Positions 11,714 through 48,877 of a stretch of 64,000 nucleotides of DNA are shown piece by piece. The DNA is from Parachlamydiales bacterium (GTDB lineage Bacteria > Chlamydiota > Chlamydiia > Chlamydiales > JAFEGQ01), in NCBI GenBank assembly GCA_050250135.1, contig JBFWPF010000003.1, positions 3,142 to 67,141 of the forward strand, written 5' to 3'. The notes under the pieces were generated by a model. It made no database searches and had not been told where the DNA came from. It saw only the letters and a list, made by a program, of their open reading frames with translations. How positions within the stretch are numbered: the stretch's first letter is position 1; every line of letters begins with the position of its first letter. The translations under genes were made by a program, and so were the position numbers.

Positions 11714-13039
11714 TTACCGTTTTTTGGTGGGGATAATGAGGACCTTCTCGACGCAGCGGTCGCTTGACTCGAGAATCTCTAACTCAAAGTCATCGTGGTG
11801 GATGCGGAGCCCCTTTGGAGGGATCTCCCCGGCGCGATGGAAGGCATACCCCCCAATCGTGTCGTAGTCCCCCTCTTGAGGGATGGTGATGTCAAAGGCA
11901 TCCTCAATGTCGAGGATGGACATCCGAGCGTCGACGATCCACCCTCCCCCCTCCTGAGCGACAAAGAGGGGCTCCTCTTCGTCATACTCGTCGGCAATCT
12001 CCCCAACGATCTCCTCCAAGCAGTTCTCAATGGTAACGATCCCCTCGGTACCCCCATATTCGTCGACGACAACGGCCAGGTGGCTCTGCTTTTGCCGAAA
12101 CTCGCGCAGGAGGTGGATGACCGAGCTGGTCTCGGGAACAAAGAGGACCGGCTTGGCATGGGTGGAGACGGGCTGGTCGAGGGGAGAGAAATCGCCGCTC
12201 TCGCTGCACCTGAGGAGGAGGCCCATGAGGTCTCGGTACATAAGGAGGCCGACAATGTGGTCGAGGTTCTCCCGGTAGACGGGTGCCCGGCTATACCCCT
12301 CCCGGGTAAGGAGCTCGATGGCCGTCTTGAGGGTGCTATCGGCCTCGATGCCAAAGATGTCGATGCGGGGGACCATGATCTCCCGGACGATCCGCTCGGG
12401 CAGCTCAGCGACCGATTCGAGGAGAGCCTTCTCCTCTTCTTCAGCGCTGGTGCTGGTAGGGGCCTGCTGAATCATCTCGACGATCTTCTCCTTCATCTGC
12501 TCGACGGGGTGGTGGAGGTCGGGCATGTAGAGGGAGGAGAAGCGGCGCCCTGAGAGGAGGAGGAGAAGGAGGGTGGCGGGGAGGGCGATGAGGAGGTAGA
12601 GGGTGGCAAAGGGGCCAAAAAAGCGGAGCATCGGCTCGGGATGGCGGAGGGCAAGGGCCCTGGGGATATAGTCGCCGATCACGAGGAGGAAGGGGAAAGC
12701 GACGATAAGGGCGATGATGAGGAGGGTGTTGACCCAGGCGTAAGAGAGGGAGCCCCCTTGGAGGGTCTCGCTAAAGATGTAGAGGAGGATGGCGAGGCAG
12801 ATGGTGAGGATGTAGCGGACCGCATGGCGAGCACAGGAGAGGGAAAAGAGGAGGGCCTCCTGCTCGCGCTCGCCGAAAAGGGGGCGGAGGAGGGTGCGGT
12901 AGAAGTAGAAGTAGCCGCTGCTCCGGAGCTGCTCCTGGGAGTGGGTCTGCTCAAGGCTCCGAAAGCCGCGGGTAACCGCCTGCAGGACAAAGGAGCCAAA
13001 GAGTCCGATAAAAAAGATGATCGTGCCGGTCAGAATCAT
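11714..13039 (-). CDS. CNNM/hemolysin-family protein (DUF21 TM domain, CBS pair, CorC_HlyC; TlyC/CorC-like)
   Basis: The N-terminus is TM-rich. CBS region: IMVPRIDIFGI..YSRAPVY. CorC_HlyC end: GGWIVDARMSILDIED..IGGYAFHRAGEIP. Confidence 0.85.
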   Translation of the reverse strand: MILTGTIIFFIGLFGSFVLQAVTRGFRSLEQTHSQEQLRSSGYFYFYRTLLRPLFGEREQEALLFSLSCARHAVRYILTICLAILLYIFSETLQGGSLSYAWVNTLLIIALIVAFPFLLVIGDYIPRALALRHPEPMLRFFGPFATLYLLIALPATLLLLLLSGRRFSSLYMPDLHHPVEQMKEKIVEMIQQAPTSTSAEEEEKALLESVAELPERIVREIMVPRIDIFGIEADSTLKTAIELLTREGYSRAPVYRENLDHIVGLLMYRDLMGLLLRCSESGDFSPLDQPVSTHAKPVLFVPETSSVIHLLREFRQKQSHLAVVVDEYGGTEGIVTIENCLEEIVGEIADEYDEEEPLFVAQEGGGWIVDARMSILDIEDAFDITIPQEGDYDTIGGYAFHRAGEIPPKGLRIHHDDFELEILESSDRCVEKVLIIPTKKR

Positions 13040-20875: not shown

Positions 20876-22211
20876 AAGCCTCCTGTGCCGAAATGCCGAA
20901 CCACGTTTCCATTTGGTGGGCCGCCTGGTGGCGCCACATCGCCTCGCCCGTAACCGTTTGACAACCCCGGGCTTTTGCCCCTTTCAGAAAGGCGGTCTCT
21001 ACCGGGCGGGTGATGATCTCCAGGACCCGCGCCCCTGCGGGAAGGCGGCTGGGGTCGATGGGAGAGGCGTCGACCTGGGGCTCCATACCAACAGAGGTGG
21101 CCTGAACCACAATCTCCTCGGTAAGGGGCTCCTCCAGCCTTCCCCACCGGACGCCGGTCTCCTCAGCCAGATGGCGGGCCCGCTCCGGAGTCCGGTTGAT
21201 CACCCTAACCTGCGCCCCCCTCCTCTTCGCTTCAACCGCGATTGCCCTCCCTGCCCCCCCTGCACCGATGATGAGGACCTGCTTCCCTTTGATATCTCCT
21301 AGAGCGTTGCAGGCGCCGATCCCATCAAAGTTAGAGCCCACGTAATGCCCATTGCGCAGAACGAGAGTGTTTACTGCCCCCTCCTCCGTCTCAACCAGAG
21401 GGCAGATCGCCTCCTTTAGGGGCATGGTGACGCTGAGCCCCCGAATGCCGAGCGTAGCGGCTAGAGAGAGAAAGCGGGGGAGCTCCTCGCTGGCGCACGG
21501 AAAGGGGAGGTAGACGGCGTCGAGGCCAAGTTTGGCGTAGGCCTGGTTATGCTTGGCTATCCCGGGGCTGCTCACTGGCCGCCCTCCGAGAAGGCCGAGG
21601 ATTTGGGTCTTTTCAGAGAGGGAGCGGAAATGGTAGCGTTCGAGCAGCACTTCAGCCGTCAGCTGACCCGGAGCGCTGCTGTTTGCCTCGTCCAAAGCGG
21701 CGTACGTCCAAGGAGCGCCAAAGGCACCGGCAAGGACGCGGGTTGCGATCCCCGCTGGCCCCATCCCCATCCCGATCACCCCTGGGCGGCGCTTGCACAG
21801 CTCCAAGACCCGAAGGGCGTCGGCCGCCGAATGGGCCGTCGTCGCTACTTTGTAGTAATCGGCCCCTCTCTTTTTTAGAGTCGCGAGGAGCCCCTCAAGG
21901 TCAGCGGGAGTCCCGATATAGTCGTGGTAGGAGGCGATCGTCTGCACCCCGGCGGGCACGGGAGGGAGCTTCTCGACATCGAGATCGGCAAAGGCGGGCC
22001 GCAGCTCCAGGATAGCGGGATCAAACTCCCCTTTTAGGGTGAAAATCGTCGGCTTCTCGCCCATCAGCGCCTCTATCTGCTCCGGCCTCTCCCACTCGAT
22101 CAGGTCGAGCCGAAGTTCAATCAGGTCGGCGAAGGTTGCCCGCGCGATCGCCCTCCTCGCCTCCTCAAGGGTGGGCCCAATAATGGGAATACAAAGCTTG
22201 GCAGGCAACAT
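20862..22211 (-). CDS. aroDE: Bifunctional type I 3-dehydroquinate dehydratase / shikimate dehydrogenase
   Basis: The N-terminal half is AroD-like (CIPIIGPT..IELRLDLI). The C-terminal half is AroE-like, with GLLGGRPVSSPGIAKHNQAY and the Rossmann motif VLIIGAGGAGRAIA. Confidence 0.85.
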   Translation of the reverse strand: MLPAKLCIPIIGPTLEEARRAIARATFADLIELRLDLIEWERPEQIEALMGEKPTIFTLKGEFDPAILELRPAFADLDVEKLPPVPAGVQTIASYHDYIGTPADLEGLLATLKKRGADYYKVATTAHSAADALRVLELCKRRPGVIGMGMGPAGIATRVLAGAFGAPWTYAALDEANSSAPGQLTAEVLLERYHFRSLSEKTQILGLLGGRPVSSPGIAKHNQAYAKLGLDAVYLPFPCASEELPRFLSLAATLGIRGLSVTMPLKEAICPLVETEEGAVNTLVLRNGHYVGSNFDGIGACNALGDIKGKQVLIIGAGGAGRAIAVEAKRRGAQVRVINRTPERARHLAEETGVRWGRLEEPLTEEIVVQATSVGMEPQVDASPIDPSRLPAGARVLEIITRPVETAFLKGAKARGCQTVTGEAMWRHQAAHQMETWFGISAQEAYEYL

Positions 22212-23791: not shown

Positions 23792-24105
23792 CAGGACATC
23801 TGCAAAGTCTGGCTGACCATTCAGATAGGATTTTACCACAGAGAACACAGAGAGGCACAGAGGGGGTGTAGGAGGCAAAACGCATGTCTCCCGGGGATGG
23901 CCCGCCCTACGTTAATGCTACAATAGATAGGCGATCGGAACGCTGGGATTGCTCCCCAGGGGCCTCCCCCTGGGGAGCAGCTGTGTGGGCTTATTCCGAA
24001 GGAATAAGATCACCTCTGTGCTTCTCTGTGTCCTCTGTGGTAAAATTTCCTAATCAACTTGGGGGCAGGGAATGAACAGCTGGCACAGACTTTGCAGATG
24101 TCCTG
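23792..24105 (+). repeat. Family-B composite palindromic element, copy B1 (314 bp)
   Basis: Outer TIR: CAGGACATCTGCAAAGTCT / AGACTTTGCAGATGTCCTG. Inner IR: TTTTACCACAGAG..CACAGAG. Internal hairpins: GCTCCCCAGGGG-cctc-CCCCTGGGGAGC and CTTATTCC-gaa-GGAATAAG. Confidence 0.9.
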
Positions 24106-24155
24106 GGCGGCAGGGGGTGCTCAGATGGCGCATCGCGATGAGGCCTGGTTTTTAA

Positions 24156-24312
24156 CCCCTGATTGCGACCTATCGTCCTGAGGGCATCGACAGTAGGCGG
24201 TCATCTGGAGCACATCCCTCCTCACCCGGGTTTACAAACCCGGCCTCGTCACGATGTGCGCCATCTGATCACCTCCTGCCGCCCCCTCAGGACGATAGGT
24301 CGCAATCAGGGG
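24156..24312 (-). repeat. Family-A element, copy A2 (157 bp, inverted relative to A1/A4)
   Basis: It has the same termini as A1, and its interior is the reverse complement of A4 with substitutions. It ends 1 nt from the MFS stop codon. Confidence 0.9.
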
Positions 24313-29700: not shown

Positions 29701-29847
29701 CCTCTGATTGCAACCTATCGTCCTGAGGGCACCCACAGTGGGCAGTCATCTGGAGCACATCCCTCCTCACCCGGGTTTACAAACCCGGCCTCGTCGCGAG
29801 GTGCGCTACCTGACCACCCCCTCAGGACGATAGGTCACAACCAGAGG
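29701..29847 (-). repeat. Family-A element, copy A3 (147 bp, diverged termini)
   Basis: The termini are CCTCTGATTGCAACCTATCGTCC and GGACGATAGGTCACAACCAGAGG. The interior matches A2 apart from a ~10-bp deletion. Confidence 0.85.
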
Positions 29848-46367: not shown

Positions 46368-46524
46368 CCCCTGATTGCGACCTATCGTCCAGGGGGCGCG
46401 GCAGATGGTGGTCAGATAGCGCACATCGTGACAAGGCCAGGTCTTTAGACCTGGGTGCGGAGGGATGTGTGCTAGATGGCCCCCAGCTGTCGATGCCCTC
46501 TGGACGATAGGTCGCAATCAGGGG
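46368..46524 (+). repeat. Family-A element, copy A4 (157 bp)
   Basis: It has near-perfect 23-bp TIRs and is nearly identical to A1 across the interior. Confidence 0.9.
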
Positions 46525-46580
46525 TCTGAAGGAACGGGCCCTAGATACCCACGACCTTTTCGATAGGAGTGAAGCTGGCG

Positions 46581-47045
46581 TCAGGAGGGAGTAGCCAAAG
46601 CCTTGCAAAACCCTTCGCAGGCCTCTTCGAGCATATCGAGGGCAAGCTCAAAGTCCTCCTCGGTCCCGTGGTAGGGGTCGGGGATATCCTGGTTGGGCCA
46701 CTTCGAGGAGAAGTCGCCGATGAGGTAGAGGTGGTCGGTCGGGTAGTCCCCCTCTGCCCGCCTCACAATCTCAGCAAGGATAGAGCGGTCGGCGGCGAGA
46801 ATGTAATCGAAGTGCTCAAAGAAATCGGGGTGGAAGACGGCAGCACGGCTCTTTAGGTCGAGCCCCCGCTTTTTGGCCGCCTTGCGCATCCGGGGATCGG
46901 GCAGCTTCCCCAAATGCCAGTCACCTAGCGCGCAGCTGGCCACTTCGAGATCGAGCCCCCGCTCCTTTGCCATCCGCTCCAAAATCCCCTGCCCGGCTGG
47001 TGATCTGCAGATATTCCCTAGGCAGACAAAGAGGACGCGGGTCAT
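46581..47045 (-). CDS. Low-molecular-weight protein-tyrosine phosphatase
   Basis: The P-loop is VLFVCLGNICRSP (CX5R-S) and the DPY loop reads IPDPYHG. The start overlaps the kinase stop (ATGA). Confidence 0.9.
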   Translation of the reverse strand: MTRVLFVCLGNICRSPAGQGILERMAKERGLDLEVASCALGDWHLGKLPDPRMRKAAKKRGLDLKSRAAVFHPDFFEHFDYILAADRSILAEIVRRAEGDYPTDHLYLIGDFSSKWPNQDIPDPYHGTEEDFELALDMLEEACEGFCKALATPS

Positions 47046-48877
47046 GCGGCGCTCCGCGCGCAGCGGAAGCCGTAGGTGCTGTTAGCGGTGCCTGGGTTGT
47101 TCCGGTGGCGGTGAGAGGTGCGCAGGTCCTCGGTAAGGCTCTTCCAACACCCCCCTCGAAGGACCCGGTAGACCCCCTGGTGGGGCCCCATCGGATTGTC
47201 GGGCTCTTGCGCCGAGACATCGTAGTAGTTGTACTCATACCAGTCTTGGCACCACTCGTAGACATTCCCCGACATATCGTAGAGGTCATATCCGTTGGGA
47301 GGGTAGCTCTTTACCGCGGTGGTGTCCGAGCTAAAGAAGTTGGCCTGGCTCTTTTCGATTCTATCGCCCGTTGCGTAGTCGTGCCCCTCCTCGCCCCCTT
47401 TAGCGGCGATCTCCCACTCGGCCTCGGTCGGCAGCCGCTTGCCCACCCAGCTAGCATAGGCAACGGCTCCATACCAGGTCACCCCCACAACGGGGTGCTT
47501 GGAGTAGCCCGACTCGATCATCATCCGTCCCCCACTCTTCCGGATCCGAGACTCCTTGAGGACCAAAAGGTCGTGGTAGTCGGGCCCCTTCTCCCCCCCC
47601 ATATACTCGAGGAAGAGGGCAAACTGCTCGTTGGTAACAGGGTGGACATCAATGGCAAAGCTGTCGACATGGATCTTGTGGCACGGCATCTCGTCGCGGC
47701 TCCCCCCGTTGCTGCCCCGAATGTAGGTCCCTGCTGGAATCACCACCTCATCGGTCATAATCGGCTCAACGTTCTTGACCTCTTTCGGCTCAGGCCGGTA
47801 GGGGGTCACCTGAGGGGTGTGCTCAAAGGGGAGGGTCACCCGGGGGGGCTCTAGCTTCGCCGGCACCACGGGGGCCACAAGGGGCTTTGCCTTGACCAGC
47901 TGCTGGGCCCTAGCGACCGGTGCCTCGACCGCTTTAAGAGGGACGCGAACCCCCTGCTCCACCTCATCCAGGATATCGAGGAGGCACTCGGGCCGCTTAG
48001 CCGGATCGCTCTGGAGGCACCCCTGGACCAGCGCATCCCAGTCTAGCTTCCAGTCGGGGACAACTTCTGAGGGCATCGGAAAGACCCCCTCAGGCAACTT
48101 GCCTGTGATCATCCAATAGGCCAATACCCCAAAGGCGTACATGTCGGCCCGGGCCGTAACAGGGGTCCCCTCGATGATCCGCTTTTGCTCGGGGGCTAGG
48201 TAGGTGTAGCTCTGCAAAAAGGACTGGTGGAGTTGGGTCAATTTCTTCCCCTCCACCGCTGTGTAGGCCCCTGTGGAGACCCCCTCAATCCCCAGCGCCT
48301 CCGCTACCGTCGCATAGAGACGGGTGAGCACACTGCCGACCCCAATCACCTTCGAGAGGCCAAAGTCGGAGAGGGTGAACTGAAGCCCCGACCTCTCCCG
48401 ACCCACCAGGATGTTGCTCGGCTTAAGGCCTCGGTGGATCAACGCCCCCTCCCCTGCTGCCTTCTCGTGGGCATAGTCGAGAGCATCGGCGATTTGGCGG
48501 AGCATCGCCAAAAGTTCCTCCTCACTGAGCCTCCCTTCGGTGGACACGTACTGGCTAAGGTTTGTCGACTCGCCAATTGAATCGACCACACAGTCGGTGA
48601 CCAGAAAGTAGAGCCCCTGGTCGTAGGAGACATTGTGGATCTTTACGATGTGGGGGTGTTCGAGGGTGGCCAGCTGCTTGACCTCCTCTTCGAAGCGGGC
48701 GATAAAGGCACGATCCCCTGCCAACTCTTTCGGAAGCACCTTGAGAACGTGCTGCCGCTTCATATAGCGGTGCTCAGCTAGGTAGACGGTGCCGAGCGAG
48801 CCCTGCCCGATTTGCTTGATGACGGTGTAATCGCCGAGTGCCTTGAGTGACATGGAGCCTTCCGGGGATAGTGACAA
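47042..48877 (-). CDS. pkn1: Ser/Thr protein kinase fused to a C-terminal FGE-sulfatase (SUMF1-like) domain, Pkn1-type
   Basis: Hanks kinase motifs are present: GQGSLGTVY, VLK, HRGLKPSNIL, DFG and APE. The C-terminus has VTWYGAVAYASWVGKRLPTEAEWE and RVLRGGCW..GFRCA. As I recall, this architecture is that of chlamydial Pkn1. Confidence 0.85.
   Translation of the reverse strand: MSLSPEGSMSLKALGDYTVIKQIGQGSLGTVYLAEHRYMKRQHVLKVLPKELAGDRAFIARFEEEVKQLATLEHPHIVKIHNVSYDQGLYFLVTDCVVDSIGESTNLSQYVSTEGRLSEEELLAMLRQIADALDYAHEKAAGEGALIHRGLKPSNILVGRERSGLQFTLSDFGLSKVIGVGSVLTRLYATVAEALGIEGVSTGAYTAVEGKKLTQLHQSFLQSYTYLAPEQKRIIEGTPVTARADMYAFGVLAYWMITGKLPEGVFPMPSEVVPDWKLDWDALVQGCLQSDPAKRPECLLDILDEVEQGVRVPLKAVEAPVARAQQLVKAKPLVAPVVPAKLEPPRVTLPFEHTPQVTPYRPEPKEVKNVEPIMTDEVVIPAGTYIRGSNGGSRDEMPCHKIHVDSFAIDVHPVTNEQFALFLEYMGGEKGPDYHDLLVLKESRIRKSGGRMMIESGYSKHPVVGVTWYGAVAYASWVGKRLPTEAEWEIAAKGGEEGHDYATGDRIEKSQANFFSSDTTAVKSYPPNGYDLYDMSGNVYEWCQDWYEYNYYDVSAQEPDNPMGPHQGVYRVLRGGCWKSLTEDLRTSHRHRNNPGTANSTYGFRCARSAA

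Follow-up and report, generated by a model that had tools for sequence, protein, structure and literature searches.

A structured hairpin MITE of chlamydial IS982 insertion sequences whose fold is probably constrained at propagation

Miniature inverted-repeat transposable elements (MITEs) derived from IS982 insertion sequences are known, as in the case of MITECca01 and ISCca4 of Cardinium, a MITE and its parent that share the conserved word AGMTTGTW just inside the left repeat (PMC9769881). Here, we analysed a 157-bp palindromic element, copy A4, located at positions 46368-46524 (+ strand) of a 64,000-nucleotide stretch (the window) of a Parachlamydiales bacterium, which corresponds to C3:3142-67141 of an assembly of 1.70 Mb in 45 contigs with ~58% G+C and 91% completeness (source genome G000 in the following). 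Like the IS982 MITEs, this element has termini that match insertion sequences passing the IS982 model, carries a short duplication and is non-autonomous, multi-copy and mostly intergenic. In contrast, MITECca01 measures ~240 bp and is found in one lineage only (PMC9769881). In the papers searched, we found no conserved folded module described for the IS982 family, nor the module presented here in the literature on chlamydial MITEs and IS982. The transposon family is a known one, and the element contains a previously unannotated, strongly supported structured module. Overall, the element is probably a structured hairpin MITE of chlamydial IS982 whose fold is constrained at propagation, an explanation to which we assign a probability close to four in five.

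The nearest functional analogue of the 157-bp element, by analogy of its features, appears to be bcr1 of the Bacillus cereus group. According to PMC3184786, which cites Okstad 2004 and Klevan 2007, bcr1 is ~155 bp long, has direct repeats of 5 bp that are rich in A/T, exists in tens to over 100 copies, is transcribed and keeps a predicted RNA structure through compensatory base changes. However, bcr1 folds as two independent stem-loops, whereas the 157-bp element forms one rod; bcr1 also shows no sequence relationship to it and belongs to another phylum. The Correia/NEMIS, ERIC/YPAL and RUP elements are likewise palindromic intergenic MITEs, co-transcribed with their neighbours and forming long RNA hairpins, but they have conserved terminal repeats and TA duplications, whereas the chlamydial element has conserved interior loops and varying termini. 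To our knowledge, neither a strand-specific excess of G.U pairs nor invariant tandem G.A pairs, both present here, appear in the descriptions of these three groups. Strand-specific imperfect hairpins near the element ends and needed in cis are also a feature of the IS200/IS605 and REP/REPIN (RAYT) systems, REPINs being hairpin doublets that evolve within genomes (PMC3116915). Nevertheless, IS200/IS605 and REP/RAYT elements rely on HUH (Y1) transposases acting on single-stranded DNA, insert beside a fixed tetra- or pentanucleotide and have neither terminal inverted repeats nor target duplications, unlike the chlamydial element, which has inverted repeats, 5-bp duplications and a DDE-type (IS982) parent. 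An assignment to the IS200/IS605 or REP/RAYT type was therefore rejected, as inverted repeats and variable duplicated targets are present.

Copy A4 is bounded by the 23-nt terminal inverted repeats CCCCTGATTGCGACCTATCGTCC (46368-46390, + strand) and GGACGATAGGTCGCAATCAGGGG (46502-46524, + strand), themselves flanked by the 5-bp target-site duplication TCTGA at 46363-46367 and 46525-46529. Its left repeat is a class-1 IS982-like terminus, a type that also bounds the IS982-like insertion sequences of genomes G383, G003 and G261. Inwards, an AGAT at 46414-46417 (+), 47 nt from the terminus, pairs with a second AGAT at 46474-46477 (+) to give the first tandem G.A/A.G motif. Further up the rod lies a central purine loop, the 5' half of which (46430-46434, +) reads GACAA in A4 and GACGA in the family consensus, and the 3' half (46457-46461, +) GCGGA in A4 and GAGGA in the consensus. 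The structure is closed by an apical 7-bp stem, CCAGGTC/GACCTGG, with a TTTA loop (46437-46454, +), always paired and of free sequence between lineages. As claimed in the original prediction, the whole unit folds as one long hairpin, at -127.1 kcal/mol (z = -14.3) for the A4 strand and -100.7 kcal/mol for the complementary strand. The same strand is the more stable one in all 56 full-length copies of the genome (mean -115 vs -91 kcal/mol). On this strand, G.U is found in many copies at eight pairs and in most copies at seven of these, and A.C is rare. The purine-purine positions are kept in all subfamilies, both at 48-49/108-109 (G.A/A.G; numbered within the element) and at 61-69/88-96, where GTGACGAGG stands opposite GTGAGGAGG.

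The paired substitutions noted earlier between A4 and the older copy A2 (24156-24312, - strand) are all present: at the apex, CCAGGTC/GACCTGG is replaced by CCGGGTT/AACCCGG (A72-T85 to G-C and C76-G81 to T-A); in the middle stem, 24:134 changes from A-T to T-A and 51:106 from A-T to G-C; and the tandem mismatch G48.A109/A49.G108 is retained in both copies. When changes in the whole genome were reconstructed by parsimony on a tree of the 40 distinct copies, 26 double-sided changes on one branch fell at true pairs, 21 of them ending in Watson-Crick pairs; with the partner slid by 1 to 4 columns as a control, there were 4-9 double-sided changes and 0-2 ending Watson-Crick. A separate count on 20 copies gave 21 pairs changed on both sides, compared with 8.5 +/- 2.0 in shuffles (0/500 reaching 21) and 4-9 with slid partners.

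The exact element was absent from 40 relatives and from species-representative genomes in a scan for the exact terminus (one genome per species). Four metagenome contigs contain a 157-bp element with the same termini and the duplication TTTAA; although most of its interior sequence differs, the hairpin is retained. A covariance model built from 20 G000 copies (R1), which scores A4 at 171.6 bits, was run on 400 genomes of the phylum and detected full-length matches of ~150-165 nt in at least 25 of them, distributed in at least ten families. More thorough scoring yielded at least 41 copies in G185, at least 38 in G390, 20 in G298, 18 in G231 and 17 in G029. Conversely, a second model made from other genomes only, and thus without G000 sequences (R2), recovers the window copies at 97-140 bits in the forward orientation, with one reverse-strand match of 68 bits among the matches listed; on A4 itself the scores are 139.9 bits forward vs 68.3 reverse.

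What is shared between these genomes is a ~110-nt helical module in which every helix covaries and the only letters conserved at 90% or more are AG.T ... GAC.A ... A.G.A ... AGAT. The module contains one tandem G.A between an A-U and a U-A pair, kept in 49/49 and 47/49 sequences, respectively, and, ~11 bp up, two tandem G.A around a C-G, with the consensus 5'-GACGA-3' opposite 5'-GAGGA-3', followed by an apical hairpin of 7-8 bp of free sequence. In a set of 32 sequences, none from G000, 88.4% of the cells are paired vs 53.2% in shuffles, 66 of the 67 pairs changed on both sides (7/7 in apical helix 5, with 95% of its cells paired) and the covariation score reaches 0.755 vs 0.197 in shuffles (0/500 reach it) and 0.10-0.17 with slid partners, in an alignment fitted to the model structure, which inflates the pair counts. 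Independently of the alignment, the model strand is the more stable in 32/32 sequences, by 18.7 kcal/mol on average. The ratio of G.U to A.C on this strand is 152:47 in the same sequences and 223:68 in a larger set. The structure-preserving covariation that had been claimed from the window alone is therefore real and far above the controls, both within G000 and across genera.

By comparison, the terminal ~20 nt are inverted repeats everywhere but belong to unrelated sequence classes. One class, (A/C)CCC-N3-TTG-N3-CC-CTA, includes G000 and is associated with 5-bp duplications; others, C(T)GACCTTACGC and CTCACCTTACGCAAAAAAT on the one hand and CCAGCCATTCCCGCTAAT on the other, are associated with ~7-bp duplications. 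The interior fold is thus conserved more faithfully than the terminal repeats, and it is strand-specific: the strand reading inward from the terminus must fold, and tolerates G.U(T) but not A.C. The window has no Rfam match at the gathering thresholds, and an E-value scan of four diverse copies against Rfam returned only sub-threshold hairpins of plant microRNA (miRNA) precursors.

In G000, blastn searches retrieved 56 full-length copies, nearly all of exactly 157 bp, together with about nine fragments, and the 23-bp termini occur at 127 sites genome-wide. The orientation of the copies is well defined (~94% identity forward vs ~74% reverse) and they fall into clear subfamilies, one of which holds 12 identical copies. 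A perfect 5-bp direct repeat flanks 38/56 copies; its sequence varies (TTTAA, TTAAA, TATTA, TTCAA and TCTGA, among others) and is always of the form T-N-N-N-A, showing that the element has transposed and is a MITE. It has terminal inverted repeats, a variable target duplication, a small size, multiple copies and an autonomous partner in relatives, and no coding capacity, as the frames crossing it are chance open reading frames (ORFs). The 157-bp element is therefore a genuine MITE. Using gene positions from a simple self-trained gene caller (1386 genes, 88% coding), nearly all copies were found to be intergenic, with 19 between convergent, 25 between tandem and 9 between divergent genes. No recurrent neighbouring gene was found. 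In the tandem contexts the fold-forming strand is sense in 15 and antisense in 10 cases, without bias. Stop codons often directly adjoin copies, because the target contains TAA (T-N-N-N-A) in a genome of 58% G+C. In the source metagenome the read depth over the element is ~100x that of its flanks, and the DNA metagenomes holding the element come from landfill and activated sludge only.

Judged from sequence, the parent family appears to be IS982 of environmental chlamydiae. G383, a near-complete genome, contains 84 occurrences of the terminus, which bounds elements of ~57, 160, 390-425 and 500 bp; the ~57-bp elements, present at six or more sites, consist of two termini only. At L105:12455-15186 of this genome, a stretch flanked by TTTGA duplications presents the terminus, the module (12461-12606), ~45 nt, a GGAGG-N5-ATG and a transposase gene of the IS982 family (NF033520, 134.8 bits for a cut-off of 130 bits) interrupted by an IS4-like insertion; a second module reads inward from the right terminus. 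Three further sites of G383, as well as G296 and G100, show the same order of terminus, module and transposase, in every case with a broken gene. Intact insertion sequences exist in G003 (same family as G000), G261 and G073, with lengths of 1.02-1.16 kb, a single ORF of 283-303 aa, class-1 termini, a 5-bp duplication and NF033520 scores of 165.6, 156.4 and 144.6 bits, respectively. G003 has nine copies of 1159 bp with a 295-aa ORF, the terminus ACCCAG(T/A)TTGCTACCCTGA and the duplication CTTTG, and G261 has 31 copies. The module is always located 40-50 nt upstream of the Shine-Dalgarno sequence and ATG of the transposase, in sense orientation, and R2 modules read inward at both ends in G003, G073, G296 and G383. 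In both insertion sequences and MITEs, 47-48 nt separate the first AGAT from the terminus.

The layout of these insertion sequences is thus left repeat, inward module, transposase, in some cases an inward module from the far side, and right repeat. The 157-bp element corresponds to the left repeat, one module and the right repeat, and the larger MITEs to two facing modules. According to ISfinder, IS982 elements have one ORF, a size of ~1 kb, a duplication of 3-9 bp and ends beginning with AC. This description fits the chlamydial elements, the termini of which begin with ACCC in most lineages and CCCC in G000. IS982 elements of Lactococcus, Enterococcus, Geobacillus and Pseudanabaena are ~1 kb, too short for the module, and gave no module match. 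The module is therefore a feature of the chlamydial IS982 lineage, at least among those tested.

The location of the changes in the tree of copies indicates when the fold matters. On the terminal branches of the young clade, which carry private post-insertion changes, Watson-Crick pairs changed 10 times to G.U, 10 times to A.C and 10 times to another mismatch, with no double changes, the pattern that neutral decay predicts. On internal branches, which represent the changes copied by later transposition, there were 17 changes to G.U vs 4 to A.C (binomial p = 0.007), and deep terminal branches carry 15 double changes from Watson-Crick to Watson-Crick. Pair-disrupting changes are thus as frequent as compensatory ones for the private mutations of young copies, but not for propagated changes nor across genomes. 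Together with the lack of orientation bias, this branch pattern suggests that the fold matters for the propagation of the element rather than for a host service by each inserted copy. The fold is selected during propagation of the element lineage, individual copies decay neutrally once inserted, and a host function for individual copies is unlikely. The idea that selection acts on a folded nucleic acid, and not only decay on a MITE, is therefore supported, with the qualification that the element is also a genuine MITE whose inserted copies decay neutrally.

In the mechanism that we propose, an IS982-type DDE transposase would move the 157-bp MITE in trans, yielding the 5-bp duplication at T-N-N-N-A sites; the stems of the module would be free to change as long as they remain paired, the three tandem G.A motifs would be fixed, and the module itself could be a cis-acting part of the transposon's own life cycle. 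Several observations weigh against this explanation. Searches with tblastn and NF033520 found no IS982-like gene in the G000 assembly, so that current mobility there is unproven and the 56 copies are orphans in this assembly; the assemblies of the element-rich G185, G390, G231 and G029 also lack a transposase of the family. No parent was found for the lineages with other termini and ~7-bp duplications. Internal and terminal branches, when compared directly, differ only modestly (Fisher p = 0.07), and the cross-genome pair counts carry the inflation mentioned above. In G261, the module is found at the transposase-proximal end only, which weakens a strict need for it at both ends for transposition, and we know of no DDE transposon that needs a folded single strand.

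The form of this explanation that we prefer, at slightly less than even odds, is a folded DNA arm, single-stranded or extruded, which would be needed by the transposition machinery beside the terminal repeat. It is suggested by the MITE lineages without genes, which kept compensating and avoided A.C on propagated branches, even in the terminal-repeat stem, as well as by the fixed distance from the terminus and the presence of the module at both ends of many insertion sequences. Alternatively, the module could act as an RNA fold in inward-reading transcripts, either serving as a regulatory leader or insulating the transposase gene against read-through, whether transcripts are processed, terminated or blocked from translation, with the MITEs simply inheriting it. 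This is a serious possibility, although we hold it with limited confidence. The left-end hairpins of IS10, IS50 and IS200, which protect their transposase genes, provide a precedent, and the constant position of the module upstream of the transposase in sense orientation, the retention of only this upstream module in the 31-copy insertion sequence of G261, the tolerance of G.U and the RNA-seq contigs of organism B (unstranded), which enter the element from both flanks, are all in line with it. In contrast, compensation and A.C avoidance on propagated branches persisted in MITE lineages lacking a transposase gene, many insertion sequences have a far-end module that is antisense to the transposase, inspection of the sequence revealed nothing promoter-like upstream of the module within the terminus, and generic insulation does not explain three invariant G.A motifs. 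All readings other than the DNA arm and the inward RNA fold are, taken together, unlikely.

A stronger claim is doubtful at this stage: the module would represent a new kind of transposon cis-element, a single strand of DNA or RNA that has three tandem G.A in its fold and is needed beside the terminal repeat by a chlamydial DDE-type (IS982) system. Lineages that differ in their termini and in the length of their duplications (5 bp vs ~7 bp) share the module; should the ~7-bp lineages rely on a transposase of another family, it would be a structured, portable cassette taken up by different transposons.

A host-beneficial small RNA (sRNA) or cis-regulatory RNA, such as a terminator or mRNA stabiliser, spread by transposition and selected at each copy, seems improbable to us. 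The fold is indeed very stable, convergent gene pairs hold more than their share of copies, many copies lie directly at stop codons, and transcription and effects on mRNAs are described for the analogous bcr1, ERIC and Correia elements (PMC3184786). However, the proximity to stop codons follows from the T-N-N-N-A target, the 15 sense and 10 antisense copies in tandem contexts do not point to a preferred reading direction, the private changes of young copies disrupt pairs as often as not, and most chlamydial genomes lack the element, its copy number in the others ranging from 1 to more than 50. Finally, an ordinary decaying MITE, palindromic through hairpin-templated repair or template switching between arms and without selection on the fold, is hardly credible: templated repair does occur, as in copy C4:69310-69466 of G000, where a 9-nt patch of the left arm is the exact complement of the right arm (CATCCCTCCTTACCCAGG / CCTGGGTGAGGAGGGATG), and the private mutations of young copies look neutral, but this converted copy is unique and did not spread, correction would erase mismatches, whereas conservation of the G.A motifs reaches at least 90% in 56 + 32 sequences that come from more than 20 genomes, the one-strand excess of G.U over A.C is left unaccounted for, and genera sharing almost no stem sequence have 88% pairing. 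The patch of C4:69310-69466 lies in the left internal loop and looks like a template-switch (quasi-palindrome correction) event.

MITEs are usually seen as inert deletion derivatives in which the terminal repeats alone matter, and this logic is reversed here: the termini drift across chlamydial families, and compensatory changes, on one strand only, preserve an internal fold whose purine-purine motifs are fixed. The element could therefore offer a clean system for testing structure-dependent propagation in DDE transposons of a family that has hardly been studied mechanistically. In practical terms, an unannotated structured motif that reaches tens of copies per genome in several lineages risks being called as candidate sRNAs, toxin ORFs or terminators in chlamydial annotation, and the module is a ready marker of recent transposition in uncultured chlamydiae.

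Several other candidate parents were considered and rejected. An IS1380 or piggyBac-like parent, initially guessed from the CC ends and the 4-5-bp duplication, was discarded since NF033539 is absent in G000, G100 and G157, its only match being a weak cross-match to an ISAs1 gene. A Tn3-like parent was excluded because the ends read CCCC from the outside in, and not GGGG. The ISAs1 and IS630 copies on contig C10 of G000 have different repeats (CAGGGCTAGCGC...); at C10:336-3863 (L062), an IS630-type transposase split in two frames adjoins an ISAs1-family element with perfect 22-bp inverted repeats CAGGGCTAGCGCATCAAAAATT, and both are unrelated to the 157-bp element. A pair of terminal repeats 2.3 kb apart on the same contig encloses lepA and no transposase. 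In this region, solitary inverted terminus fragments at 21589-21621 and 23884-23930 (L009) flank lepA, with a full copy adjacent at 21427-21583; they may be what is left of deleted copies, or form a composite arrangement that encloses this housekeeping gene. The terminus-like matches in G165 are coincidences within an IS4/IS1634-like ORF, and the canonical IS982 of G298:C14 lacks the module and differs in its termini, so that it is not the parent of the lineage with GACCTTACGC; this lineage and the CAGCCATTCCCGC lineage have ~7-bp duplications. The 479-aa IS66-like gene between G383 termini belongs to a 1634-bp insertion sequence inside a larger MITE and is not the parent; several copies of this single-ORF IS66-family element are inserted in larger MITEs of G383. 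In the same genome, a TnpB-family RNA-guided endonuclease gene (L105:10837-11904; NF040570, 1.7e-55) is located near a degraded IS982-like copy.

Other observations concern individual copies. In G000, a variant of the right terminus at positions 135-146, with GGACTAGAGGTC instead of GGACGATAGGTC, recurs in diverged copies (e.g., C4:2337, C6:22554, C21:24181 and C22:27834) while the left terminus shows no corresponding change, so that these copies share a marker that breaks the pairing. In the metagenome contig Ga0180438_10003723 (L016:2626-2986), a ~360-bp element has two facing modules, the termini CCCCGGGTTGCTACC and the duplication TCTAA. Module copies abut or overlap the 3' end of a tRNA in three genomes (L080:135-291, L081:1501-1658 and L094:1501-1652). 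ARAGORN identifies a tRNA-Leu in L081 and a tRNA-Phe in L094; in L080 ARAGORN made no call, and the tRNA is only a T-arm-like flank, recognised by eye and truncated where the contig begins. A GNAT acetyltransferase neighbour is common to L080 and L081, with the element in opposite orientations. In G329, a second hairpin of ~145 nt adjoins a module copy (L079:1327-1471); it has only sub-threshold Rfam matches resembling miRNA precursors and may be another palindromic MITE family.

Within the window, the 23-nt terminus CCCCTGATTGCGACCTATCGTCC is found at eight sites with at most three mismatches and at none in shuffles, and these sites bound four elements, in agreement with the four full copies originally proposed. 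Besides A4, which has the full 157 bp and the module in forward orientation, A1 (4931-5087, +) measures 157 bp, scores 132 bits with R2 and has an imperfect target duplication (TCGAA/TCCAA). A2 also has 157 bp and belongs to an older subfamily, with the duplication TTAAA and an R2 score of 139.1 bits. A3 (29701-29847, -) is a diverged copy of 147 bp with a 10-bp internal deletion, the duplication TTTCA and an R2 score of 96.8 bits. The fragment reported at 24109-24148 (+) is real: it is the left arm, as far as the apical loop, of an older copy into whose A/T-rich apical loop A2 was inserted. No element-related transposase gene is present in the window, as previously stated, nor in the whole assembly. 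Beside A4, an operon at 46581-48877 (- strand) encodes a 611-aa protein in which a Ser/Thr kinase is joined to an FGE-sulfatase domain, and a low-molecular-weight tyrosine phosphatase, the start of which overlaps the kinase stop; A4 sits 56 nt downstream of the phosphatase stop codon.
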